A stretch of 64,000 nucleotides of DNA from a virus. The position numbers and the translations under genes were made by a program. Below the pieces are notes generated by a model. The model made no database searches and had not been told where the DNA came from. It was given only the letters and a program-made list of their open reading frames with translations. Where the stretch lies: the IMG/VR virus record IMGVR_UViG_3300009082_000016, positions 1 to 64,000 of that record; one strand, given 5' to 3'. Numbering within the stretch: the first letter of the stretch is position 1; the number at the start of each line of letters is the position of its first letter. Positions 8,202 through 55,703 of the stretch are shown one piece after another.

Positions 8202-8230
8202 AGAATGCTCCCGAACTTCGGGAGAATCAA
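8202..8230 (-). promoter_or_regulatory. Promoter TTGATT-N17-CATTCT with a perfectly palindromic spacer
   Basis: Spacer CTCCCGAA-G-TTCGGGAG; ATG 8 nt after the -10. Confidence 0.55.
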
Positions 8231-10254
8231 GCCTGGGCAGGCGTGGACAGCCGGGCGGACACCCGCTTGAGGCCAGCGAGCACATGCTCGAGCGCGAAGA
8301 AGGCGCGGGAAACGTGCTCCTGGGGGAGCTCGGACAGGCCGAGCCGAGCCGCCAGGAGCAGCGTTCCCAACCGGTGCTGCACCGCCTCGAACGCCGGGAT
8401 GAAGGCGACGAAGCGGGAGAGGTTGTCGATGTTGAGGAAACCGAGCGACAGGATGGCGTCAACCGCGCCCGCGTCGCCCAAGCTCGCCGCGTCCTTGATG
8501 AGACCGAAGGCGGCGCCGTGCAAGGTGTCGACGAAGGTGTCCACCTGGGCGGCGAAGGACGCCGTCTTCGTCTCCGCCTGGGTGCGAAGCTCGCTGAGCA
8601 GCGTGACCTCGCTCACCCGGGCGACCTTCACCTGACCGCGGTGGTAGGCCCGCGCCAGCGTGCGCTCGGCGGCCTCCTTCGAGAAACCGAGCAGGCCGAG
8701 GGTGAACATCGCATCGGCCGGGCCAACACCGATGCGCTCGCCGATCTTGAGCAGCGGCCCGCCCTGGATGTTGAATGCCCCGCCCGAATGGCTGATGGTG
8801 CAGACCGACGCCGACTTCTCGGCGAGGCTGCCCACCTGGGCACTCGTGTCGAGCTTCACCATCTTGTCGCCGAGCGACACCCACTTGGCGGACTCGGGGA
8901 GAAGCGTGGTGCCAGTCGTGCCGGGGGAGACGGTCCGGACCGCCGGGGACGTGACCAGCTTCACCTGCCGGCCGTCGATGGTCTCGCACTCGTAGGCCTT
9001 CCGCCCGTCCGTCTCGGTCACCATCTTGCAGCGGATCGGCTCCGTGCAGGCGACCTCGCCCTGCTCGTCCTCCCAGCAGAACGAGCCCAAGCCCTCCGGC
9101 ATCTCGCTCGTCTTGAGGGGCGGAGCGGACTCCGACGGCAGGGCCCCGATGTCGTCCTGGTAGCCGTAGCTGTCGCCGTCGGAGAACAGGCGCATCGGCG
9201 AGCGGCCGCCGGTGAGGGCGTCCATGACCTTCGTCATGAGCCAGCCGCCCATCCCGCGCCCGCCACCGAACGCGTGGCAGGGGCCGGTGCCGCCCAGGAG
9301 GGACGGCCGATCGCTGCCCATCTCGATCGGGGACTCGGCGTCCCGCGGACGCCGGATGATGATCACCATCCCCTTGACGTCCGCCTCTTTCACGATGGCG
9401 GGACCGAGCTTCTCCACCGCAGGGCCAGGCGGGAGGTTGACCCAGGGCGTGTCCTCGTAGGCCCGACGCATCGCCGTCTTCACCTGGAAGATCGGGTCGC
9501 CCTGTTCCGGCTCCAGCTTGCGGACCAGCATGACGTCGGGGTTGAACAGGTTGGTCAGGCCGAACGTCTCGGACGCCGTCTTCGCCAGCGGCTCGCAGGG
9601 GGTGATCTCGGAGACCTGCGCCAGGTAGCCGTGGGTGATCGGGTTGGACACCAGCGCCTGCCGGAGTCCGGCGTTCTTCTCGAGCACCTGCCCAAGCCGG
9701 TCCAGCTGGTCGGAGTAGATGGTGTCGGAGATCATGCCGAGAATCGGGAAGGGGCTGTGCCAGGAATCGAGCGAGGCCGCCTTCTCGCGGTCCGGCGGGT
9801 AGATCGGGTTGCCGAACAGCTCGTTGACGTCGCCGCGGAACGGGGCGTCGAACGTGGACGGGCGGAACAGGGCCTCCCCGAGCCGGGACTCATTGAGCGG
9901 AAGGAACTTCCCCTCCTCCGTCTTGATCATGTCGAACGGGAAGAGCTTGAAGTCCTCGATGATGACCGGGATCTTCGCCGTCCGGATGCCGATCTCCGTG
10001 CCCATCTGGCCGGCGGCCTGCCCCGGACTGAGGCCCGTCTTGCTGGTGAGCAGGATGTGCCCGAACGCGGCGCCCTTCTGGGCGTCGGTCATCTCGTCGA
10101 TGATGATCTCGGTCGGGTACATGTACGCGTACGGGGCGACCTTGAGCCACTCGTCCCGGATACGCATCGGCCACTGGCTCACGTCGCGGGGGAGTTCTCC
10201 TCCCTCCGGCTGAGCCGTCTTCACGATCTGCGGGGCAACGAAGAGCGGCTTCAA
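8227..10254 (-). CDS. Large putative head/structural protein with many K-x-A motifs
   Basis: GGAGGTG SD plus TTG start; VKTAQ, EKAAS, AKTAS, VKEAD, EKSAS, SKEAA, TKTAS. Confidence 0.75.
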   Translation of the reverse strand: MKPLFVAPQIVKTAQPEGGELPRDVSQWPMRIRDEWLKVAPYAYMYPTEIIIDEMTDAQKGAAFGHILLTSKTGLSPGQAAGQMGTEIGIRTAKIPVIIEDFKLFPFDMIKTEEGKFLPLNESRLGEALFRPSTFDAPFRGDVNELFGNPIYPPDREKAASLDSWHSPFPILGMISDTIYSDQLDRLGQVLEKNAGLRQALVSNPITHGYLAQVSEITPCEPLAKTASETFGLTNLFNPDVMLVRKLEPEQGDPIFQVKTAMRRAYEDTPWVNLPPGPAVEKLGPAIVKEADVKGMVIIIRRPRDAESPIEMGSDRPSLLGGTGPCHAFGGGRGMGGWLMTKVMDALTGGRSPMRLFSDGDSYGYQDDIGALPSESAPPLKTSEMPEGLGSFCWEDEQGEVACTEPIRCKMVTETDGRKAYECETIDGRQVKLVTSPAVRTVSPGTTGTTLLPESAKWVSLGDKMVKLDTSAQVGSLAEKSASVCTISHSGGAFNIQGGPLLKIGERIGVGPADAMFTLGLLGFSKEAAERTLARAYHRGQVKVARVSEVTLLSELRTQAETKTASFAAQVDTFVDTLHGAAFGLIKDAASLGDAGAVDAILSLGFLNIDNLSRFVAFIPAFEAVQHRLGTLLLAARLGLSELPQEHVSRAFFALEHVLAGLKRVSARLSTPAQA

Positions 10255-12115: not shown

Positions 12116-12785
12116 CGCGCACCATCCTCCAGCCCGCCTCGATGCCGTGCCGCCCGCAGAATCCCCCGGGCAGTTCGACCACAAAACGAACAGGCTCCGT
12201 CGACAGGTGCGGCGTGTCACTGTTCGGCTCGGCGGAATCGACGACGTTGGACACCGTCCCGTCAACCTTCACGAACACCATGTCCAGCGGGATCGGGACG
12301 TTCCGCATCCAGAACGAGCGGCGCTCGACGCTGGGGAAGTCGAACAGCATCCCCTGACCGTCGGGGAGATGCTGCCGGCCCATCAATCCGCGGCGAAGCT
12401 CGATGTCCCCTTGGGCCACCTCCACCACCACTCGCACGACGTCGCCTTCGACCGAGTTCGGGTTCACGAAGCGGATGGTGTCAACGCCCGAGGCCCACTT
12501 CCGCAGGGCCCCCACGAAGGCAGCGTACTTCACGGCGGCCGGCGATGAAGAGGCCATTCCCTCCCCCAACCAACGCGCCGCTCGACCGAAAGCTCGACCC
12601 GACTTCCTGACGGCAGGAATCGCACCGTGGTGGACCCGCCGGGCCGTCATCCTCGCCGCCTGGACCGCGTGCGGGAGGGCAGGAACGATCACCTCCCACG
12701 GAAGGTGCGGGAGGGCCATGAACTGCTGGAAGAGCTCGGCAACAACACCACCCTTCTTTCGCATCGGAATCTGGTTTGCCTGCAT
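12108..12785 (-). CDS. DUF192-domain protein with N-terminal K-x-A-containing extension
   Basis: RGLMGRQHLPDGQGMLFDF..SFWMRNVPIPLDMVFV..VVELPGG; preceded by VKYAAF and RKWASG. Confidence 0.8.
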   Translation of the reverse strand: MQANQIPMRKKGGVVAELFQQFMALPHLPWEVIVPALPHAVQAARMTARRVHHGAIPAVRKSGRAFGRAARWLGEGMASSSPAAVKYAAFVGALRKWASGVDTIRFVNPNSVEGDVVRVVVEVAQGDIELRRGLMGRQHLPDGQGMLFDFPSVERRSFWMRNVPIPLDMVFVKVDGTVSNVVDSAEPNSDTPHLSTEPVRFVVELPGGFCGRHGIEAGWRMVRGG

Positions 12786-15700
12786 CAGTATGCTCCCGGC
12801 TTCCCCGAGATCCCCTGCCCGAACCGCTCGTTGTAGGCCATCGCCGAGAAGGGGTTGTAGCCCGAGACGTCGGACTCGTTGCCCTGCAGGGCGGCCTCGA
12901 CGAGCGTGTCGCGCAGGCGCTCGTGGTTCATCTTCGCCAGCCAGTCCTCGGTGTTGGCCAGCGGCGCCGTCTTGATGCCCATCAGGACCGGGTTCACCTT
13001 GATCGGCTTCCGGCCCTTCAGGTCGGTGTGGTTGAGCTCGTTCGCCTTGGAGAGCGTGATGTACTGGCCCTTGACCAGGTCGGGGGCATCGCCCGGATCG
13101 GCGATGACGCCGGTGTTGGTCACGCCGCGGGCCAAGAGCTCGAGATTCCGCCGCCGGATGCCGAACGGCTTGAAGATGCCGTCCATCTCGGTGACGATCT
13201 GATTCCGCACCTGGTCGATGCCACCGATGTCGAGCAGCTCGCGCAGGTCGACGTTCCCATCCGTGATCGGCTTGCCCTTCCGGACCTGGCTGCCGACCTT
13301 GAGGTCGCCCACCAGTTTTCGATTCCCCGGAACGTAGTGGTCGATGTCGGAGCCGCGGCCCGTCGTGATGGTGACGTCGAAGCCGCCGGCGGGGTCTTCC
13401 TTGATGCGGGTGATCTTCCCATCCGCCGAGGCCAGCGTGGCCGGGTTGGAGATCTCCTCCGGGATCTGGAGCAGCTGCTTCACGCGAACCATCGCCGGGC
13501 TGCCCGCCTTCATCCCGGTCCCGCCCGTGTAGACGCCGGCGCCGTGCTTCGACTTGAGCATCAGCTGCGCCATGCGCTCGCCGATCGACTGCCCGGCCAT
13601 CACACCAAGGTTCTCACCCATTTGCGGGAGGTGGCCGTCGGGCATCAACCCGAACGCCTTGGACGAGATGCCCTCGCCGTGCGGGGACGTGAGCGGCGAC
13701 GCCACAATCACCTTCCGGATCCGGGCGTTCTTGAGCCGGTCGATCAGCTCGGAGTCGAGCAGCGTACCGCGCTTGAGGGTGAACTTCGCCGTCTTCACCG
13801 GCTCGACGAGGTAGCGGTCGACGACGTCGGGGTGGTCCGTGTCCATCGCGATGCCCTCATCGGGCAGCTGGTTCGACACGACCAGGGAGTTGCCGACGGT
13901 GTTGACCATCTGCTTGTTGATGTAGCCGGGATCCTGGACGGCGGTCTTCGTCTGGACGATGCCGGTGCGGGCGCCGATCGACGCCAGCCAGTAGCCGGTG
14001 GTATCCAGCCCTTCGCCGTACGACCGGGTCACGGGCTCCAGGACGGGATTGCCCTTGGAGTCGGTCATGAGCACCGGCGCCATGGTCATCTCCTGGAACT
14101 GGGACGACGACGGCTTCACGCCCGACCGCGACATGAGGTAGAGACGGTTGCCGGACGCCTTGGCGTTCTTCGCGTGCTCGGCGAGCATCCCCTTACCAGC
14201 TTCCGCCCACGCCTGGATGGCTTTCTCCTCACGGTCGGGGGCGTCGGTGGCCAAGGCCTCGCGGGCCTTCTTCTCGCCCTCCTTCATGTATCGATCGCGC
14301 AGCGGCTTGTCGGTCTTGAGATCCTTCGACGAGAGGCTGAACAACTCATCGTACACGGCGGCATTGCCGAGCCCCATCAGGGACTGGGCCGTCTGGACGT
14401 ACGCCTTCTTGTCCTTTTTGGCGACCTCCGTCAGCAGCTTCTCGGTGTTGTCCTTCGTGAGCTCGAACTCCGGGTCGAACAGCAGGTTCGGTTTCCGGGC
14501 GATGCCCGGCAACGATTGCCACACCAGGAGCCGGCCGGCAGTCGTCTTCTTCCCGCCGACACTCACGACATCCGTCATCCCGAGCTTCCCGGCGCTGACG
14601 GCGTTCACTGCTGCCTTCACAGAGCCGAAGGACCGGTCGGTTTCCTTCCCGAACTGGGACAGGCGGAAGAGGCCGACCGACATCTCGTTCCGCGGCGTGA
14701 ACATGGGCTTTCCAGTCGCCGGGTTGAGCAGGCTCTCGGAGGGGAACATCTTCCGCGCTTCGCCGACGGCCTTCCCGGAGACCGGGACGTAGAGGCTGAC
14801 CGCGTCGCCGTCGAAGTCGGCGCCCATCGACTCGGCGATGAGCGGCGGGATCTTGATCGCCCGGCCACCGACCAGCTGCGCCTTGAACGCCTGCACGCCG
14901 TACTTGTGGAGCACCGGGTCGCGCTTCATCAGCACGGGCCGGTCTTCCATCACCCGCTCGAGGGCGCGGAGGGCGAGCGGATCGTCCTTCTTCACCATCT
15001 CCTGCGCCTGCAGGGCACCGTTGCCCATGCGGGTCAGCTCTCGCACGACGAACGGGCGGTAGATGTTCTTGGCAACGGGCAACGGGATGCCCAGCTCGTC
15101 GATGGTCAGGTCCGGGTCCGGGATGATGGTCGACCGGGCGGCCAGATCCTGCTTCGACTTGAGCAGCTTCGACTGCACCCAGCTCCACTTCGGGCTGCCC
15201 GACCCGGCGATGACGTCGACGAAACCGCGCTGCTCGACGCCCTGGGTCGTCTTCACCGGGTCCATCACGCCGGCCAGCGAACCGAGCGACTTGTAGAGAG
15301 CGAAACGGGTCTTGCCCCTGCGGGATTCGGGCGTGTCCGGGTCCATGTCCTTGAGCCGCTCGTTCATCACGCCGACGCCCTTGTAGAGCTCGTTGAGCGA
15401 ATCGCGGACGAGGGCACCACTGGGCAGCACCGACATCGGCCGCATCGTCGGCGGGATGACGTACACCTGCTGGGACATGTACGCTTCGGTCGGGCTCATG
15501 CCCGTCTGCTTGAGCGCCGTCAGGTAGCGGTACTTCCTGACCGTCTGGTCGAGCTGTTGGCCCTCGAGATTCGGGATGCGGTCCCGGAGCTCCTTGATCT
15601 CCTTCTTCACGTCGATGGCCGAGAGGACCGACTTGACCGCCTCACCACCCGTCAGGGCGTTCGGGTCCTTCCGGTCGACCAGCTTCCCGTCTTTCGTGAG

Positions 15701-18700
15701 CCCGACCGTCCCGGCGATGACCCCGTGCAGATCCTTCTGCTTGAGGCCCGTCAAGGCCAGGACACCACGCTCGAAGAACGGGTTGGGCAGCGACTCCGCC
15801 AACGTGATGTTCGCAGGGTGCTCGCCCATGATCCCGCCCGTCACCTGCGGGTCGAACAGGCCGCCGTCCTCCGGCTTCAGGTCTTCGGCGCGGAGCATGA
15901 GCCCCGGCCGCTTCAGCTCGCCGTGGCTGGAGTCCAGGACCTGCTGGTCCGTCGTGGGGATCAGCTTCACGCGGGTCCCCTTCTTCTCCAACTTCACGCC
16001 GAGGCCCTTCAGGTACTCCTCGAACTTCGCGTGGGCGAACGTCAACTTCGGCGGCGGCAACGGCTGCCCCAACTGCACCGCACGCCAGAGCTCATCCGCC
16101 TGATCGGCATCGGCCTTCCAGGTGTGACTCTCCCGCAGGATCTCGCGGGAGCCATGGGCCAGGAGCGCCATGTTACCGAGGCCGCCGAGCGCCTGGGCCC
16201 CGCCGCCGTGCCCGCCCTTCGGTTGGCGGTTGACGTCGTAGCTGAAGCCTGGCCCACCGGCGCGGGAAGCCATCTTGCGGTCGACCTGGTGACGCTGCTT
16301 GAGCACGTAGGCGTAGCCGACTTCAGCTTTGCCCAACATCCGTCCGGTCGTGGGGTCGGTGACCTCGTCCTCTTCATCCACCCCGAGCTTGTCGAGCGAC
16401 TGCCGGGTGACCTCGCCGTAGTCGACGCCGGGGACGAAGTTCGGCACCTTGATCGGCGTGCCGATCTTCTTCGCCATCTTCGCCGTAGCCAACTCATAGA
16501 CCTGACCGGCGGCAACACGGGCGGCGACGCCGTGCGGGTTGATCGCCAGTTCGATGGGGCCATCCTTCGTCCGCGGCATCTCCTCGTCGGGGCGGATGTC
16601 GACCACGATCCCCTTGATGCCGTGGCGGGTGGTGACCTTGTCGCCGATCTGCAGCGGTTCCTGGGTCCGGACGTGAACCTTCACGGTCCCGGTCGGCGTA
16701 TGGTGGACACGGATGACCTCTCCGGCAACGTCCTGGTCCCAGGTGAGCGCGGCGTTCTGATACGGCTTGGCCAGAGAGCGGTGCATCCGCTTCATGGCCA
16801 AAGCTTCGTTCGTGTGCTCGATCGGGCGCAGACCCAGCACGAGCGGGTCGCCCGGCTTCACGATCGTCCCCGGCTTCACGATGCCGGAGCGGTCGACCAT
16901 CTTGTACTGATCGGTCGTGAACGCCGTCGGGTAGTACGCCTGGAACTTCTTCGGGTCAACGATCTCCTGCTCGTCCGGGAGCGCGTCGATCTTGTGCAGG
17001 TGCTCGCTGGTCAACTTCTTCGCGCCGCCCTCCGACATCACGACCGCGTCCTCGTAGGTGCGGCCGGGAATCGGGATGAGCGCCGTTCGGAGGTTGGTCC
17101 CCAGGGCAAGCACGCCGCCCCGGGTGAAGTTGGAGTCGGCCAGCATCTGGTTCTTTCGCACCATCTGGCCCGGCTTCACCAGCGATTCCTCGTGGATGAG
17201 CTCGCGCTTTCCAGTCAGCGGGTAGTTCTGGTACAGCGGGACCGTGTGCATCTTGCCGGACGTCGAGCGGATGCGGACCTCGCCGTTCTTGATGGACGTC
17301 ACCTTGCCGGTCACGGGCGACAGCGGCAGTGTCTCACGGCCGACCATCTCCTCCATGCTTTCCCGGGAAGAGGAATCAACAGCGACCTGGACCAGCGGGG
17401 CCTCGCGCGTCGTGAGCGGGATGGCCTGCGACATGTGACGCGACGCCATCTCGACACGGCCGGGGTTGGTGTTCTGCACGAAGGGGACAAGCGCCGTGCC
17501 CATGCCCAGCAGCAGGCCCGGGTTGGTCACGATGTACTCGACCTTCTCCGGGTCGACGCGAACGAACTTGTTGCCGATGCCCGACACCCGGACCTTCTTG
17601 TTGACCGGGACCCACTTCTTGCCTTCCTTCCGGTACTGGTCAGGCATTGCCACGACCGAGGTTTCAAAGACGGTGGGGTCGACATTCTCGTACTTCTTCG
17701 TCCGGGTGTTGTAGAGCGTCGTCCGCGGCGTGGTCCCGTCCTTCATCAGGCCCATGGCGAGCTGCAGATTGACGCCGACGTTCTGTCCTTCCGGCGTATC
17801 GAGCGGGTCGATGAAAGCGACGTGGGACGGGTTGACCGCCTTTGCCTCGGAATGCTCCAGGGCATAGGCGCTGCCGGCCTCGCCGAGGATGGTGCTCCGC
17901 ATCGACGAGCGGATCATGTCGACGGGGTTGGTCTGCTCACCGAGCTGGCTCAGCGGAGAGCCGGTGAAGAAGCCTCGAATGGGCCAGTGGAACATGTTGC
18001 CCCGCACGGCCAGGTCCACCCGGTCATGCCGGTCGACTGCGTTCTTGAGCGACCGGGTCTTGTACTGCCCGAACTTCTTCACCGAGAACGCGAGATGATC
18101 ATCGATGCCGATGAGGTTCTTGAACTTCAGGCTGTCGCGGTCGTCAGGCTCCGAGTTGCCGCGGGAGACGGACAGGGCCCGCTTGGAGGCCTGGAGCAGG
18201 AGCTCCGGGGTGACCTGCCGATACGACTTCCCAAGCGTGATCTTCGTCGTGTCAGGGTCCATCGTCAACGAGCTCAGCGCGTCGCGGACCTGGAGCGCGT
18301 CGCCCGGCTTGCCGAAGGCCCGACCGAGCTTCCCGAAGGCGGACTCCGCCCGTTTCGCCGTGACGTCGTTCGCCTTGGCAATCTCGTCACCCCAAGCGCG
18401 GGCGATGACCGAGTTGCTGATGCCCATGGCGTTGAGCACGGGCTTGAGCGGGACGGTCGATCCGCCCGTCTTCAGTTTGAACGCCTTCTGCGCGGCGTCG
18501 AACTCGATGTTGAGGCTGCGCTCCGGGGTGACGATGCTGGAAACGACCGACCGGGCCTTCGGGTAGGTGAAAACGCCCGGCCGTCCCTTCCACAGGTGGT
18601 CGACGTAGTACTCCTTGCCGTCGACGATGTAGCCCCGGGCAGCCGTCACCGCCGGCAGCGTGCCCAGCGGGACCTCCCCGCGGGACTTCACCTTCCCGGT

Positions 18701-18946
18701 GGCTGCATCGCGGAGGGTGAACCGACCGACCAGCGGTACGCCCCACGTCTCGTCGTTGAGCCGGGCGTTCAACTGGGAGTCCACGTCCCGCATGTCCGGC
18801 TCTTTCGAGTACCGAATGTCCTCGAGCTCGAGCACGTTCCGCTTCCCGATGATGGGGAAAACGCCTTTGACCGTCTCCACCAGGCGATTCCGGAGGTTTT
18901 CGAACATCCCACGCGGGTCAGCAGCGTACGGGGGCGGCTTCGCCAT
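12785..18946 (-). CDS. rpoBC: Single-chain multisubunit-type (two-barrel) DNA-directed RNA polymerase, beta-beta' fusion, 2053 aa
   Basis: Beta motifs: DTPEGQNVG, YEDAVVMSE, GDKVTTRHGIKG, YVLKQRHQVDRKMASR. Beta' motifs: VIPPTMRP, RDPVLHKYGVQAF, catalytic GADFDGD (DFDGD at 14804-14818), bridge helix, trigger loop GQSIGE..QLMLKSKH. Confidence 0.95.
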   Translation of the reverse strand: MAKPPPYAADPRGMFENLRNRLVETVKGVFPIIGKRNVLELEDIRYSKEPDMRDVDSQLNARLNDETWGVPLVGRFTLRDAATGKVKSRGEVPLGTLPAVTAARGYIVDGKEYYVDHLWKGRPGVFTYPKARSVVSSIVTPERSLNIEFDAAQKAFKLKTGGSTVPLKPVLNAMGISNSVIARAWGDEIAKANDVTAKRAESAFGKLGRAFGKPGDALQVRDALSSLTMDPDTTKITLGKSYRQVTPELLLQASKRALSVSRGNSEPDDRDSLKFKNLIGIDDHLAFSVKKFGQYKTRSLKNAVDRHDRVDLAVRGNMFHWPIRGFFTGSPLSQLGEQTNPVDMIRSSMRSTILGEAGSAYALEHSEAKAVNPSHVAFIDPLDTPEGQNVGVNLQLAMGLMKDGTTPRTTLYNTRTKKYENVDPTVFETSVVAMPDQYRKEGKKWVPVNKKVRVSGIGNKFVRVDPEKVEYIVTNPGLLLGMGTALVPFVQNTNPGRVEMASRHMSQAIPLTTREAPLVQVAVDSSSRESMEEMVGRETLPLSPVTGKVTSIKNGEVRIRSTSGKMHTVPLYQNYPLTGKRELIHEESLVKPGQMVRKNQMLADSNFTRGGVLALGTNLRTALIPIPGRTYEDAVVMSEGGAKKLTSEHLHKIDALPDEQEIVDPKKFQAYYPTAFTTDQYKMVDRSGIVKPGTIVKPGDPLVLGLRPIEHTNEALAMKRMHRSLAKPYQNAALTWDQDVAGEVIRVHHTPTGTVKVHVRTQEPLQIGDKVTTRHGIKGIVVDIRPDEEMPRTKDGPIELAINPHGVAARVAAGQVYELATAKMAKKIGTPIKVPNFVPGVDYGEVTRQSLDKLGVDEEDEVTDPTTGRMLGKAEVGYAYVLKQRHQVDRKMASRAGGPGFSYDVNRQPKGGHGGGAQALGGLGNMALLAHGSREILRESHTWKADADQADELWRAVQLGQPLPPPKLTFAHAKFEEYLKGLGVKLEKKGTRVKLIPTTDQQVLDSSHGELKRPGLMLRAEDLKPEDGGLFDPQVTGGIMGEHPANITLAESLPNPFFERGVLALTGLKQKDLHGVIAGTVGLTKDGKLVDRKDPNALTGGEAVKSVLSAIDVKKEIKELRDRIPNLEGQQLDQTVRKYRYLTALKQTGMSPTEAYMSQQVYVIPPTMRPMSVLPSGALVRDSLNELYKGVGVMNERLKDMDPDTPESRRGKTRFALYKSLGSLAGVMDPVKTTQGVEQRGFVDVIAGSGSPKWSWVQSKLLKSKQDLAARSTIIPDPDLTIDELGIPLPVAKNIYRPFVVRELTRMGNGALQAQEMVKKDDPLALRALERVMEDRPVLMKRDPVLHKYGVQAFKAQLVGGRAIKIPPLIAESMGADFDGDAVSLYVPVSGKAVGEARKMFPSESLLNPATGKPMFTPRNEMSVGLFRLSQFGKETDRSFGSVKAAVNAVSAGKLGMTDVVSVGGKKTTAGRLLVWQSLPGIARKPNLLFDPEFELTKDNTEKLLTEVAKKDKKAYVQTAQSLMGLGNAAVYDELFSLSSKDLKTDKPLRDRYMKEGEKKAREALATDAPDREEKAIQAWAEAGKGMLAEHAKNAKASGNRLYLMSRSGVKPSSSQFQEMTMAPVLMTDSKGNPVLEPVTRSYGEGLDTTGYWLASIGARTGIVQTKTAVQDPGYINKQMVNTVGNSLVVSNQLPDEGIAMDTDHPDVVDRYLVEPVKTAKFTLKRGTLLDSELIDRLKNARIRKVIVASPLTSPHGEGISSKAFGLMPDGHLPQMGENLGVMAGQSIGERMAQLMLKSKHGAGVYTGGTGMKAGSPAMVRVKQLLQIPEEISNPATLASADGKITRIKEDPAGGFDVTITTGRGSDIDHYVPGNRKLVGDLKVGSQVRKGKPITDGNVDLRELLDIGGIDQVRNQIVTEMDGIFKPFGIRRRNLELLARGVTNTGVIADPGDAPDLVKGQYITLSKANELNHTDLKGRKPIKVNPVLMGIKTAPLANTEDWLAKMNHERLRDTLVEAALQGNESDVSGYNPFSAMAYNERFGQGISGKPGAY

Positions 18947-18953
18947 GAGCCAG

Positions 18954-18983
18954 AGCGTACACCGAACCTGCATCTGCAGTCCA
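18954..18983 (-). promoter_or_regulatory. Promoter TGGACT-N18-TACGCT, leaderless RNAP transcript
   Basis: -10 ends 7 nt before ATG 18946; no SD. Confidence 0.7.
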
Positions 18984-19019
18984 CAGCGCAAGAACCGGTA
19001 CCGGCACCGTCATAAGAGA

Positions 19020-24947: not shown

Positions 24948-26153
24948 CTACTGGTTCATCTGGGGGTGGTTCACGCCGGGCGAGTCCAGGTCATGCGCCA
25001 TCCGCCCCATGACTTCCTTCTCCGGGGTGGGCAGGTGGTTGAAGAAGCCGATCGGGTCGTCCCGGAACAGCTCCGCGAACTCGGGGCCGAACCGGGCATC
25101 GACGTGCTTGCTACGGCGGGCCAGCCTCACGAGGTCGGTCCCTGAAACTCTCCAGGTTCCGAAGTCATAAGAGTATTCCGCCGGGCTCTTGCTTTCTTCC
25201 TGGGCCGTCTTCTCGAAGACGACGTCCTGCGGATTCGGGAGATGCGTCTCCCAGAAGTCGGCCCCGCCGTAGCGGGCATCGAGCTGGGCCACGACTTCCA
25301 TCATCACCTGGGGGTGGAGCGAGGCGGCCTTGTCCATCAGGCCGCGGTACATCTGGCCGGCTTCGGTGTCCCGACCGTAGAACGTCGAACGGGCGAACAG
25401 GTGGCTCCGGATCGCCTCGACCGACGCTACCTTCCGCATCGCCTCCTCAGCGACCTTCTGCATGGACGGGATGCCGATTTCGCTGCAGCGGTTGAAGATG
25501 TTGGTGGCCATCATCCGCCGGGTGATCGGGTCGAACTCGGCAGCGTACTTGTCGAAGTAGCGGTTGGCCTCGACGACGTCATCGTACGCGTCGAGCGGGT
25601 ACTTCTGCCGCACGGGATCCGCGAAGCGCAGAGACCCCTGCTTCACGGTCCGCCCTTTGCGCTGCTGGCAGGCAGCGATCTCCGACCGCTGCTTGTCGGT
25701 CAACGGGTGTGCCTTGCGCCAGAGGGCGACCCCCAGGCCTTGCCCACCCTGCCTCCGAGCGCCGAGACGGAGTCCGGCACCGGGGCCGTACTTCGCGCCG
25801 GGACCCTGCCCACGGCCGGGCCCCAGACCCCGACCGGCCGCCTGCTTCTGCCGCATGTACGCAGCGAAAAGTCCGACCTTCTCCGGCCCCTCCGTCGCCT
25901 TGCTGGTGAGGTTGTCCCCCGCGGCCGGGTCGCCTTCCTCTTCCGTCGCCGTGGTCGGCTGGGTCTCCTGGATGAGCTCCCTCACGGGGGATTCCTCGTC
26001 GGAGGGCGGGAGCGTGGAGGGCGCTTCCTGCGCCTTCTTGATCGCCATGAGACCCCTCGACTTGTCGAGTCCCTTCTGGATCGACGCCTTCGACTGGTGC
26101 GAGAACGGCATCAGGTTGGTGCCGGTGAGATCCGCCTGCTTCGGCCTGCTCAT
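24948..26153 (-). CDS. Head-cluster protein with DUF6582-like domain and many K-x-A motifs
   Basis: FADPVRQKYPLDAYDDVVEANRYF; PKQAD, QKQAA, RKVAS, DKAAS, EKTAQ. Confidence 0.7.
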   Translation of the reverse strand: MSRPKQADLTGTNLMPFSHQSKASIQKGLDKSRGLMAIKKAQEAPSTLPPSDEESPVRELIQETQPTTATEEEGDPAAGDNLTSKATEGPEKVGLFAAYMRQKQAAGRGLGPGRGQGPGAKYGPGAGLRLGARRQGGQGLGVALWRKAHPLTDKQRSEIAACQQRKGRTVKQGSLRFADPVRQKYPLDAYDDVVEANRYFDKYAAEFDPITRRMMATNIFNRCSEIGIPSMQKVAEEAMRKVASVEAIRSHLFARSTFYGRDTEAGQMYRGLMDKAASLHPQVMMEVVAQLDARYGGADFWETHLPNPQDVVFEKTAQEESKSPAEYSYDFGTWRVSGTDLVRLARRSKHVDARFGPEFAELFRDDPIGFFNHLPTPEKEVMGRMAHDLDSPGVNHPQMNQ

Positions 26154-52020: not shown

Positions 52021-52725
52021 CTATTGTTCTACCTCAGGTTGGCTAGCCGCCTGCTTCACCCCACTCGCCAAATCCCACTTGTCTCCCACCCGCTTGGTGA
52101 ACTTGAACAGCGTCGGCTTTCGCTTGATCCCGTGACCGACAGCCTTCTCCTTGTTGATGAGGAGCTTGCCGTCCTGCTTGGTGACCTCGTACGGTTCCTG
52201 CTTCTCTCCCCTGAAGGTGCGCGGACCCGTACACGACTTCAGCTCACCGTGCTGCCTGCTGTGGAAATGCCACGGAACGGACCCGACGGGGAACCCCCTA
52301 GCAGCTAGCTTCAGACTGCCGCTGCGTACCTGCTGCTTGAGGTCGCCAAGGCTGATCTGGCGGATCTTACCGATCGTGATGTGGTGGTGCTTGGCACTGC
52401 GTAGGACGTCCCGCTTCGTACCGAAGTTGAGGTAGACCTTGTGCTCGTCGAACTTGGACGGGTCGTGCCAGTCCATCTTGTCGACCACGTAGGCCCGGCG
52501 CGAGTTCTTGTTGGGGCCGACGAACACGTCGAGTGGATCCTTGTCCGCTCCCATCGTTCCCGGGAACGAGCCGTAGTTGTGCGTGTATCGTTCCCGCTTG
52601 TTGATGAACAACGTCCCGATGGGCCGCTCGATGTTGATATTCAGCCCGTGAATACGGGTCTTCCACCGGGTGACGTCACCTTCCCAGGCTGTCTTGAGGA
52701 ATGCCGACTTCTCGGCTAGCCCCCG
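52021..52725 (-). CDS. Inorganic pyrophosphatase-like (inPase) domain, probably reached by -1 frameshift from the upstream gene
   Basis: HGLNINIERPIG...YGSFPGTMGADKDPLDVFVGP...FDEHKVYL; the domain N-terminus lies upstream of the first in-frame start codon (TTG 52611). Confidence 0.75.
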   Translation of the reverse strand, partial: RGLAEKSAFLKTAWEGDVTRWKTRIHGLNINIERPIGTLFINKRERYTHNYGSFPGTMGADKDPLDVFVGPNKNSRRAYVVDKMDWHDPSKFDEHKVYLNFGTKRDVLRSAKHHHITIGKIRQISLGDLKQQVRSGSLKLAARGFPVGSVPWHFHSRQHGELKSCTGPRTFRGEKQEPYEVTKQDGKLLINKEKAVGHGIKRKPTLFKFTKRVGDKWDLASGVKQAASQPEVEQ

Positions 52726-55703
52726 AAAGGGCTTCCGCCGCCCTGTTGCATCGCCATCTCCTGCATCGCCTGCTGCTCGAGCTGGCGACGGCGGCGATTG
52801 CGGGCACGCTGCGCGAGCGCGTAGCCGGTGACACCACCGGCGACGCCGCCGAGCGCGGACATCTCCGGCATCGGGGTCGCGCCGTAGAGCTTCTGCAGGA
52901 GCGGCAGGGCCGCGGCGCCGGCGAGGGCGCCCCCGCCCGCGGTCAGCATCGGGTGACGCTCGGCGAACCCCATCTGCTCCTGGGCCCGCTTGAGGAAGGC
53001 ACCGTGCTTCGCCTTCCCCCGCGCCCGCTGGTAGGACTGCGACACCGCCGACGTTCCGAGCATCCCGCCGAGACCGCCGGCGAGGCCGGACGCGGCACCC
53101 GTGAACACAGGGTGACGACCGGCGAAGGAGAGGTGCTTGCGGATCTTCTCCTTCTCCTTCTCCGTCATCCCTTCCTCGAGCGAGTGACGCAGGACCGAGC
53201 CCGCCGCTCCACCGCCGATGGGGCCTCCCGCCCAGCCGCCGAGGAATCCGGTGGCCATCGGATGCCGCTCGACCCAGCCCGCCTCCCGGGCCTGCTTCTC
53301 GCGCGTGAAGTCGGCGAACGAGCCCTGCTTGTAGTAGGACTCCGGCGACTTCTTGCCGAACAGCGCCTTCGCGCCCCAGAGACCCGCCAACGCGCCACCG
53401 CCGATCAGGCCGGCGCGAGGAAGGGCCTTCATGAGGGGCTCACCGACGCTCTTGCCCACGAGACGGGGCCGCCTGGCGATGTACCCCGGGGTCTTCTTGA
53501 TCTCCGCGTCGATCGCGGCGCGAGCCGCATCGCGGGCCTGCTGGTCCACGATTTTCGCAGGCATCCCACGAGCGTCGCGCATCGCACCCGTCGGCAGGGC
53601 CTCACGCTCCGCCCACAGGTTCTGCAGTCGCTCCAGCTCACGGGCCTCCAGTCCCCTCTGGGCCTTCCGCCCGACGTGCGCCCCCACGCCCAGGGCCGCC
53701 GCACCGGGGAGGATGCCGATCTCGCGGTCCCGGATCTCCCTCAGGGAGTTCGGCGCCGGAGTGCCGTACTGCGCGTACTTGTACTTCGCCTCCTGGAACG
53801 ACCGCTCCTGCAGGTTGCCCAGGATGGACTCGAAGTCCTCGAGTCCGGCCGTACGCGTGGTCGGGGAGGGGCCGATGCTTCCGCGGGTCGCGTCTCCGGT
53901 GCTGGGGCTGGCGAACGTGGTCGGCTGGCCCGTGACACCGGCGCTCGAACCACCACCCATCGTCATGGGGACGGAGGTGGCTCCACCGCCGGCCGCGCTG
54001 GCAACACCACCGCTGGGCGAACCGACGGCGACCTTCGTGAGCATCGCCCGCTTCTCCGCCATCTGCGGATCGAACGCCGCCATGCGCCGCATGCCGGGCG
54101 CGTACGGGTCCATGCCGCGAGAGATCGGCGACGGGTGCCCACCACCCATCCGGCTGTGACTGAGCTCGTGGCCCAGCACGCCCGAATCCCCACCGCGGGA
54201 GATCGACGCCGGGCCACCGCCGCGCATCCGGCGGTAGATCTCGCCCGCGCCGAGGCCGAGGCCGCCACCGGCCGCCGCGCCGCCCGCGATCGCCAACCCG
54301 CGGCGCTTCTTGTCCTTCATGCCCCGCGTCGCCAGCGCCGTACCGGCGCCGCCGGCCACCGCGCCGCCGAGACCGCCGATGACCCGCGGGTCGGAGAAGA
54401 ACGAACCGATGTCGCTGCTGCTGAGCGCCTGCTTCTTCATGGTCATCCTCGCCTGCTTCTGGAACGACGCCTGGACCTTCATGCCGCCACCACCGGGGAC
54501 GGCAGCCTTGGCCACTTCCGTGGGGGCCGGAGCGGCCGGAGGCGGAGCGGCAGCCACCTGCGGGGCAGCCGCAGGCCCGGCGGCCGCAGGAGCCGGGACG
54601 GGCGCAGCAGCCGGGCCCATCACCATCGACTCGTAGTTCGGGGCCCCCTCCGCGTTCAGCGCGAGCATCTGCTGCAACGCCGGCGTGCCGAGCTGCTGAC
54701 CACCCTGCTGGAGGGCCTGCGCGGCCGCCTGCGGACCGAACAGGGCCGTCATCTCCTGGAGGGCGGCCTGGGACGGCCCACCTTGAGCCGCGGCGTTCGC
54801 GGTCTCGGGCCCCATCATTGCCTGCAGGCCCGCCGCACGGCGCACGGCCTCCAGGGACTGGGTCTCGTCCGTCAGCCCGGCCGCCGGAGCTTCTCCCCTG
54901 GCCACAGGGCCGCCGAAGCCGCCCTGATCGAACCGGCTGGGCATGTCCATGGGCGAACCGCTGGCGTAGCCGCCGCCCATGCCCTGGATGGCGGCCGCCA
55001 GGCCCGGGTCCATGCCCGTCGGGGCCTGCGGCGCGTTCATCGCGCCCATCAGGCCCTCGAGCTGGCCCCGCTTCTCCCGCGGGATGCCCAGGATTTCCTC
55101 CACCACCGAACGGGCCTGCGCTTCCTTGACCGCCCGCGGGGAGAACTCCCCGAGCTTCTGCTTCCTGAGGTTCCGGGGAGCCGTCGGGTTCTGTCCGGTT
55201 CGTTCCACGTGGTGCTCCTTGAGGCCGGGAAAGCGTGCATAGACCTTCGAGCGTACCGTGGCCCGCTCCGCAGGCGTACCGTGCTGCGACACCCTGGCCA
55301 AGGCGTTGCGGGCATGCGGTGCGTCGTGGATCGGGTACTTCTCCTGCTTGGGAAGCGCGAAGTTCTTCGGCTTGATCTTCTCCCGACCGGCAGCCGTCAG
55401 GTTTGCAGCTTCCTTCTGCATGGCTCCGAGCGTACCACGGGTCAGCGCGTCCTGGGAAGCCCGCCACAGGTCGTAGTTCAGGGAGCCGGTCTTGAGCGAC
55501 TTGTACTCGCTCTTCGGCTTGTCGAACTTCGCCTTCGCCTCGCGCTTCCCCTGGGGGGTGCCGAAGCCCTTGGGCGCCTGCCCCTTGGCGTGCGCCTGCT
55601 GCGTGGCGACGGCAAAAGCGACCGACTTCGCCTTCTTCGGTGGGTACGTCTCCTTCATCGAGGGAAGGAGGTGCATAGCCCGGTCGTGAATGGCCTTCGG
55701 CAC
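52716..55703 (-). CDS. 995-aa Cys-free modular putative internal/ejection protein (DUF6582-like domain, glycine zippers, RHP repeats)
   Basis: AGGAG SD plus GTG 55703; FALPKQEKYPIHDAPHARNALARV; many K-x-A motifs. Confidence 0.8.
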   Translation of the reverse strand: MPKAIHDRAMHLLPSMKETYPPKKAKSVAFAVATQQAHAKGQAPKGFGTPQGKREAKAKFDKPKSEYKSLKTGSLNYDLWRASQDALTRGTLGAMQKEAANLTAAGREKIKPKNFALPKQEKYPIHDAPHARNALARVSQHGTPAERATVRSKVYARFPGLKEHHVERTGQNPTAPRNLRKQKLGEFSPRAVKEAQARSVVEEILGIPREKRGQLEGLMGAMNAPQAPTGMDPGLAAAIQGMGGGYASGSPMDMPSRFDQGGFGGPVARGEAPAAGLTDETQSLEAVRRAAGLQAMMGPETANAAAQGGPSQAALQEMTALFGPQAAAQALQQGGQQLGTPALQQMLALNAEGAPNYESMVMGPAAAPVPAPAAAGPAAAPQVAAAPPPAAPAPTEVAKAAVPGGGGMKVQASFQKQARMTMKKQALSSSDIGSFFSDPRVIGGLGGAVAGGAGTALATRGMKDKKRRGLAIAGGAAAGGGLGLGAGEIYRRMRGGGPASISRGGDSGVLGHELSHSRMGGGHPSPISRGMDPYAPGMRRMAAFDPQMAEKRAMLTKVAVGSPSGGVASAAGGGATSVPMTMGGGSSAGVTGQPTTFASPSTGDATRGSIGPSPTTRTAGLEDFESILGNLQERSFQEAKYKYAQYGTPAPNSLREIRDREIGILPGAAALGVGAHVGRKAQRGLEARELERLQNLWAEREALPTGAMRDARGMPAKIVDQQARDAARAAIDAEIKKTPGYIARRPRLVGKSVGEPLMKALPRAGLIGGGALAGLWGAKALFGKKSPESYYKQGSFADFTREKQAREAGWVERHPMATGFLGGWAGGPIGGGAAGSVLRHSLEEGMTEKEKEKIRKHLSFAGRHPVFTGAASGLAGGLGGMLGTSAVSQSYQRARGKAKHGAFLKRAQEQMGFAERHPMLTAGGGALAGAAALPLLQKLYGATPMPEMSALGGVAGGVTGYALAQRARNRRRRQLEQQAMQEMAMQQGGGSPFGG

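Follow-up and report, generated by a model that had tools for sequence, protein, structure and literature searches.

A candidate programmed -1 ribosomal frameshift that would append a pyrophosphatase-like module to a 995-residue protein of a high-GC phage

The genome of a high-GC phage represented by IMG/VR virus record IMGVR_UViG_3300009082_000016 (172,723 bp, ~66% G+C, 100-bp terminal overlap; labelled G000), the first 64 kb of which form the window, contains at the end of a minus-strand operon a gene for a 995-residue protein followed by a pyrophosphatase-like domain (InPase, PF18823) that lies one base out of frame and has no start codon of its own. The best single explanation, and a moderately probable one on the evidence of the sequence, is programmed -1 ribosomal frameshifting at C_CCU_UUC: since the start-less InPase domain follows a known slippery sequence in a frame shifted by one base, slippage probably joins the module to a fraction of the 995-residue protein.

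Most ribosomes on the 995-residue gene would stop at its TAG codon, and a fraction would slip back by one base on C_CCU_UUC, with tRNA-Pro moving from CCU to CCC and tRNA-Phe moving from UUC to UUU. The slipped ribosomes would read CGG as the first codon of the new frame and then continue to the end of its 234 codons, giving a 1227-residue form whose C-terminal module consists of InPase and of a small domain marked by a W-H-F-H motif. We infer that such slippage happens, and the same holds for its rate.

The slippery heptamer and the frame beyond it

The 3' end of the 995-residue gene reads, on the minus strand, AGC (52733-52731), CCT (52730-52728), TTC (52727-52725), GGG, GGC and TAG, and this codon reading bears out the in-phase C_CCT_TTC that a preliminary description of this DNA had pointed out (Table 1). 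The heptamer permits both tRNAs to re-pair in the -1 frame; C_CC.U_UU.C is among the motifs that give high-level frameshifting, and H_HH.U_UU.Y is among the most efficient classes in E. coli (Sharma et al. 2014, PMC4066793). The confidently coding open reading frames (ORFs) of the genome contain 110 in-phase XXXYYYZ heptamers in 49,803 codons, most of them with G or C in the A-site triplet (Y = A/T in 21 of the 110), and CCCTTTC occurs in phase once, at this junction. A/T-type heptamers have a frequency of 0.042% per codon, which corresponds to an expectation of ~0.2-0.4% for the last 5-10 codons of a given gene. Two of the 21 A/T-type heptamers precede a coding-like -1 continuation past the stop codon, namely the one at this junction and one at 109144. 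The latter (G000 109123-109554, minus strand), an in-phase G_GGT_TTC located six codons ahead of its stop and followed by coding -1 sequence, was dismissed as a frameshift site: the next gene has GGAGG and a GTG overlapping the stop, and the two form an ordinary coupled gene pair.

The -1 frame reads ...PFRGLAEKSAFLKTAWEGDVTRWKTRIHGLNINIERPIG... and would add its 234 residues to the 993 encoded ahead of the shift, in agreement with the fusion of about 1227 residues originally predicted; the short product has 995 residues. Upstream of the junction the same frame is open for 237 codons, the preceding stop being at 53442. The G+C content of third codon positions (GC3) is 0.90 in frame 0 (last 100 codons before the stop); in the -1 frame it rises from 0.54 ahead of the junction to 0.82 past it, which shows where coding changes frame.

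The InPase domain encoded in the -1 frame is intact. Its profile match (cut-off 26.8 bits) scores 66.3 bits, and 67.4 bits when the genome is searched; D-K-D-P-L-D, which follows the family pattern D-x-D-x-x-D, and F-D-E-H-K are both present; the acidic metal-binding residues D61, D66, D93 and E94, along with K96, occupy columns that are invariant or nearly so; and the strongest conserved block of the family (HGLxIxIENPxGSxR in an alignment of ~160 relatives) occupies residues 26-40. The AlphaFold (AF2) model, made with 37 sequences, has a predicted local distance difference test score (pLDDT) above 90 for residues 21-135, and its top Foldseek matches in the Protein Data Bank are all family-I inorganic pyrophosphatases. 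InPase is a polyvalent-protein-type domain with the family-I pyrophosphatase fold, of predicted activity.

The coding frame downstream of the heptamer lacks initiation signals of its own. It was stated at the outset that this frame has no ATG, GTG or TTG before TTG 52611, and this is correct for the whole interval after the stop at 53442. No Shine-Dalgarno (SD) core (GGAG, GAGG or AGGA) is found in the 25 nucleotides upstream of TTG 52611, ATT 52653 or CTG 52644, whereas the neighbouring genes do carry SD cores. The annotated gene of 196 residues, for which gene callers picked TTG 52611, is unlikely to be the whole story.

An independent start, either at this TTG (which yields 196 residues without the first two strands) or at ATT 52653, would make the InPase ORF a gene in its own right. 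Among 80 other InPase loci from viral contigs, which were scanned with the narrower of two alignments (A2, the wide alignment A1 being too diverse), nine (~11%) are short forms with their own start. In one natural stand-alone InPase (locus L034) the start, M-N-I-H-G-I..., is made through an ATGA overlap with the upstream gene and precedes the conserved block by three residues; ATT 52653 is at the equivalent place. A start at the TTG, however, deletes the most conserved block and two barrel strands of the AF2 model (residues 21-25 and 28-34); neither codon is preceded by an SD core; initiation at ATT is very rare; nine residues upstream of the ATT are still covered by the Pfam match and by the confident part of the model; and the GC3 of the 24 codons before the ATT, counted by hand, is highest in the -1 frame. 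Independent initiation is accordingly considered improbable.

Table 1. Features of the junction and of the genes on either side (window coordinates)
Feature	Position	Strand	Remarks
Upstream gene, 995 residues	52716..55703	-	GTG start at 55703, AGGAG 6 nucleotides upstream; stop TAG 52718-52716
DUF6582 (PF20223)	55269..55394	-	29.8 bits against a cut-off of 27.3
Three R-H-P and Gly-zipper repeats	52893..53267	-	Residues 813-937 of the 995-residue protein
Slippery heptamer C_CCT_TTC	52725..52731	-	In phase X_XXY_YYZ; Pro992-Phe993; two codons before the stop
G5 run	52720..52724	-	Directly after the heptamer; G6 would make an in-frame fusion
Hairpin GCCGA (52716-52712)/GAAG/TCGGC (52707-52703)	52703..52716	-	5 bp, GC-rich, GAAG loop
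-1 frame from the re-read C	52021..52725	-	234 codons and stop (52023-52021)
TTG start of gene callers	52609..52611	-	Residue 39; 196-residue product; past the HGLxIxIExPxG block and strands 21-25 and 28-34
ATT, possible non-canonical start	52651..52653	-	One residue before the HGL block
InPase (PF18823) domain	52330..52680	-	Residues 16-132 of the -1 segment
W-H-F-H domain	52048..52296	-	Residues 144-226; ~80 residues

Related loci and the possibility of a deletion

An error of sequencing or assembly in the G run, with an in-frame fusion in the true genome, can be given very little credence. Homopolymer length errors are common on some platforms, but four further contigs of different datasets (Joint Genome Institute samples 3300027792, 3300009037 and 3300027726, and the Logan assembly of SRR5468431) show 100% identity along 1.6-12.6 kb of sequence that spans the junction, and an assembly error is therefore unlikely.

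A deletion that is real would be a different matter. If one base had been lost from an ancestrally in-frame fusion of 1227 residues, most simply by a change from G6 to G5 at 52720-52724, and the loss had been fixed in this population, InPase would now be untranslated, or translated only through adventitious slippage on the adjacent heptamer. This is judged to be unlikely, though it has to be taken seriously, and several of the results that weigh against frameshifting, which are gathered here, favour it.

The conserved block has an in-frame start, or an open frame extending beyond the end of the fetched DNA, at all 80 of the other InPase loci, and the locus described here is the only one of the 81 at which it has no start. 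At 52 of the 80 loci, 69-897 in-frame residues precede the block, and 19 run off the 3-kb flank, most of these with at least 1000 codons open; altogether ~88% (about 70 of 80) are in-frame fusions behind 60 to >900 residues. Fusion in frame behind 470-900+ residues is the norm for InPase, and the frameshift arrangement is found at none of the 80. Restoration of a single G gives ...PFGGLAEK... in frame, and the G5 run, of a kind that has a frequency of 0.14% per base per strand in this genome, abuts the heptamer; homopolymer runs are preferred sites of indels.

The exhaustive HMMER search (1.84 billion representatives) returned 4006 InPase relatives, none of them above ~50-53% identity save the truncated call of the window itself. 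No homologue of either partner found by the IMG/VR, protein, HMMER and metagenome searches keeps the junction, so that conservation of the site offers no evidence. The IMG/VR scan with the InPase ORF found one relative (39% identical), which is an in-frame polyvalent protein; word-index protein searches found the window's own products alone; the ESM Atlas search returned nothing; comparison of the locus with GenBank phages by Megablast gave no match; and a search of metagenomes for the junction, with the length of the G run left free, gave 0 matches, a figure in which near-identical records may be masked. The five identical records of the junction may be one recent clone or a single clonal population, and their identity leaves them without evolutionary information. 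The case for a frameshift is one that rests on a single sequence.

The only relative of the phage's RNA polymerase found in viral contigs is 38% identical and is encoded by IMGVR_UViG_3300014656_000018, the nearest related phage, in which five small ORFs replace both genes. The segment at 46000-65900 of that record (L010) keeps a row of genes for 1310, 245 and 1089 residues, and five ORFs of 126-170 residues stand in place of the 995-residue gene and InPase. No homologue of InPase or of the 995-residue protein was found in the related phage reached through the RNA polymerase (G001). With five ORFs at its place in the related phage, the pair behaves as a variable cassette, and the end of the operon as a variable region.

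The structure of the RNA at the junction adds little to the case. The GCCGA-GAAG-TCGGC hairpin reported in the preliminary description is present and begins 8 nucleotides past the heptamer (-8.5 kcal/mol), but its significance is a separate matter: 29% of random 30-nucleotide windows, taken 5 nucleotides after arbitrary genome positions, fold at least as stably, as do 35-60% of longer windows, and the hairpin has no statistical weight as evidence for a frameshift. A longer, two-tier stem (-13.8 kcal/mol) takes in the G run that immediately follows the heptamer, and the ribosome would therefore have opened it. Inspection by eye revealed no clear SD-like stimulatory element upstream of the junction, and an Rfam scan of the junction found no meaningful element.

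Against the deletion, it needs one of the rare efficient in-phase heptamers to lie by chance within two codons of the break (~0.2-0.4%), and it leaves a frame of 234 codons that is fully open, with the GC3 given above and with the nearly invariant residues of the family kept, in a sequence recovered from several samples. By our own rough estimates, the coincidence of the heptamer counts 60-200:1 for slippage and the coincidence of the G run ~10:1 for a deletion, which with a prior of ~3:1 in favour of indels comes to ~2-7:1 for slippage overall. It is possible that both are true in part, an indel having been tolerated because the adjacent heptamer lets some ribosomes through; such a junction would in practice act as a frameshift site. 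Programmed slippage thus remains the preferred reading. Of the original proposal that a frameshift fuses the 995-residue protein to InPase, the heptamer, its phase and rarity, the change of frame, the intact domain and the lack of a start or SD core all stand in support, as do the usual place of InPase within larger packaged proteins and its union with a similar DUF6582 domain in one protein (below); the hairpin, not being exceptional, does not.

The predicted fusion protein and its operon

The 995-residue protein is rich in alanine (17%) and glycine (15%), has long Ala/Pro/Gln linkers, and contains at least seven uncharged Gly-zipper segments, including the three R-H-P repeats near the C-terminus. 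This composition suggests a membrane-inserting protein. Apart from its DUF6582 domain, no homologues were found by an IMG/VR scan with the C-terminal half, a word-index protein search or the ESM Atlas. A protein of 232 residues (P0017) joins InPase to a DUF6582 domain that is 68% identical to that of the 995-residue protein; none of the other 80 viral loci has DUF6582 in the neighbourhood of InPase, and the link between the two domains therefore rests on one protein. A weaker DUF6582-like match (21.3 bits, below the cut-off) is located at 25545-25646 of the window (minus strand), in an ORF of 401 residues (24948-26153). The second-closest InPase relative in the exhaustive search (P0014, 46% identical) has a tail with a Gly-zipper and rich in Gln/Ala, which was considered as a possible relative of the 995-residue protein and rejected, the similarity being compositional only and the BLAST match not significant.

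The second small domain of the module shares ~53% identity with the N-terminal parts of P0015 and P0050, the latter of which bears a Mu F minor-head domain. This W-H-F-H...H-C domain matches no Pfam family and was modelled poorly (pLDDT below 50).

Two K-x-A motifs had been noted ahead of the InPase domain, and they are indeed at residues 6-8 and 11-13 of the -1 segment; the extension has four in all (residues 6, 11, 139 and 224), which coincide with the borders of its modules. K-x-A may possibly be a protease or processing site. Genome-wide, 270 K-x-A motifs were observed versus 215 expected from per-protein shuffles; the 995-residue protein is not enriched (11 observed versus ~9.5 expected from composition). 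Enrichment is strong in a few proteins near the terminase, among them those at 8227-10254 (13 versus 3.3 expected) and 24948-26153 (8 versus 2.2 expected) of the window and at G000 170869-172413, all on the minus strand.

Fused by slippage, the product would carry DUF6582, Gly-zipper repeats, InPase and the W-H-F-H domain, and, if packaged as predicted, would be of the polyvalent protein kind. The 995-residue protein may be a virion protein or an ejected, membrane-active protein that brings the enzyme into the particle or the cell, and the enzyme may clear pyrophosphate (PPi) or a nucleotide-derived signal early in infection. The preliminary description went further, with a cargo protein, a low stoichiometry set by the frameshift, and removal of PPi for an injected RNA polymerase; each of these, injection of the polymerase included, would have to be understood as conjecture. 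More tentatively still, slippage may be a dosing device by which, of all copies of a membrane-active virion or ejection protein, a minor and constant share takes the InPase and W-H-F-H cassette into the particle and the host, making it a polyvalent protein built by frameshifting. Since K-x-A lies exactly at the borders of the modules, a maturation protease could release them there. We regard this fuller scheme as rather doubtful.

The operon that ends at this locus encodes, in order, proteins of 1468, 1107, 228, 1103 and 995 residues, the pyrophosphatase-like frame, and a protein of 155 residues. The 1468-residue protein has a baseplate-J-like region; profile searches gave no family matches for the 1107-, 228- and 1103-residue proteins, and an IMG/VR scan found no relatives of the 1103-residue neighbour. 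With the 995-residue gene placed after the baseplate-J-like gene and two genes of ~1100 residues, at the end of the operon, the initial judgement that this is not the classic tail-chaperone site is upheld.

Elsewhere in the window are genes for the large terminase, a DNA polymerase, a helicase and a recombinase. The RNA polymerase (12785-18991, minus strand) is a single chain of 2068 residues in which one ORF joins the Rpb2 and Rpb1 domains as a beta/beta' fusion. The genome also encodes a transfer-messenger RNA (tmRNA; G000 73856-74253, minus strand, corresponding to L011 10856-11253), matched over its full length by Rfam RF00023 (86.9 bits) and not reported by ARAGORN. No phage tRNAs bearing on decoding were found with ARAGORN.

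Relation to known systems

In gene 10A/10B of T7 and in the major head protein of Lactobacillus phage A2, the latter described by Garcia and co-workers in 2004 (cited in PMC10885494), a -1 frameshift near the 3' end reportedly gives a minor form with a C-terminal extension. Here, similarly, a slip of the X_XXY_YYZ type a few codons ahead of the stop would leave most copies of the protein short and a minority extended. The extensions of T7 and A2 are structural, whereas here an enzyme module of InPase and W-H-F-H would be placed on an orphan Gly-zipper carrier that is not known as a virion protein. In the G/GT tail assembly chaperone of lambda, a -1 slip on a heptamer likewise fixes the ratio of two products, as it would here; but G and GT are a small chaperone pair directly upstream of the tape-measure gene, and the present site is in a gene for 995 residues without a tape-measure context.

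InPase domains of this type have been described as parts of phage polyvalent proteins, whose packaging and injection are probable, and roles in acting on nucleotide-like signals or in clearing PPi for early transcription or replication have been proposed for them (Iyer, Burroughs, Anand, de Souza and Aravind 2017, PMC5512222); the PPi-clearing idea is therefore already published and is not new. PHROG and PB1-like matches place InPase within large head or polyvalent proteins or at their C-termini, and in PB1-like phages it ends a minor head protein of 765 residues, whose gene is the third upstream of that for the head maturation protease. The module described here belongs to the same PF18823 family, with the same expected packaging and injection and the same proposed roles; in polyvalent and PB1-like minor head proteins, however, InPase is joined in frame, whereas here it is one base out of frame without a start of its own.

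Pairs of MuF-like and VIP2 genes have been flagged as possible frameshifts by PRFect, as predictions only (PMC10885494). MuF-effector fusions resemble the present arrangement in having a head-internal carrier and an exchangeable effector, in one gene or in two adjacent frames, and the W-H-F-H domain is also found on a MuF protein; unlike those systems, this genome has no MuF domain.

If the junction is the result of an indel only, it is no more than a broken fusion of the ordinary kind, and what it teaches concerns annotation alone. Both the kind of mechanism and the domain are known, and a polyvalent-type enzyme module attached by recoding would be a new combination. If the frameshift is true, phages can attach an injected enzyme to its carrier by recoding instead of by gene fusion, with a built-in setting of the packaged copy number, and there would be a class of frameshift sites, beyond those of tail chaperones and capsid proteins, that is miscalled as truncated genes, as in the call of 196 residues here.

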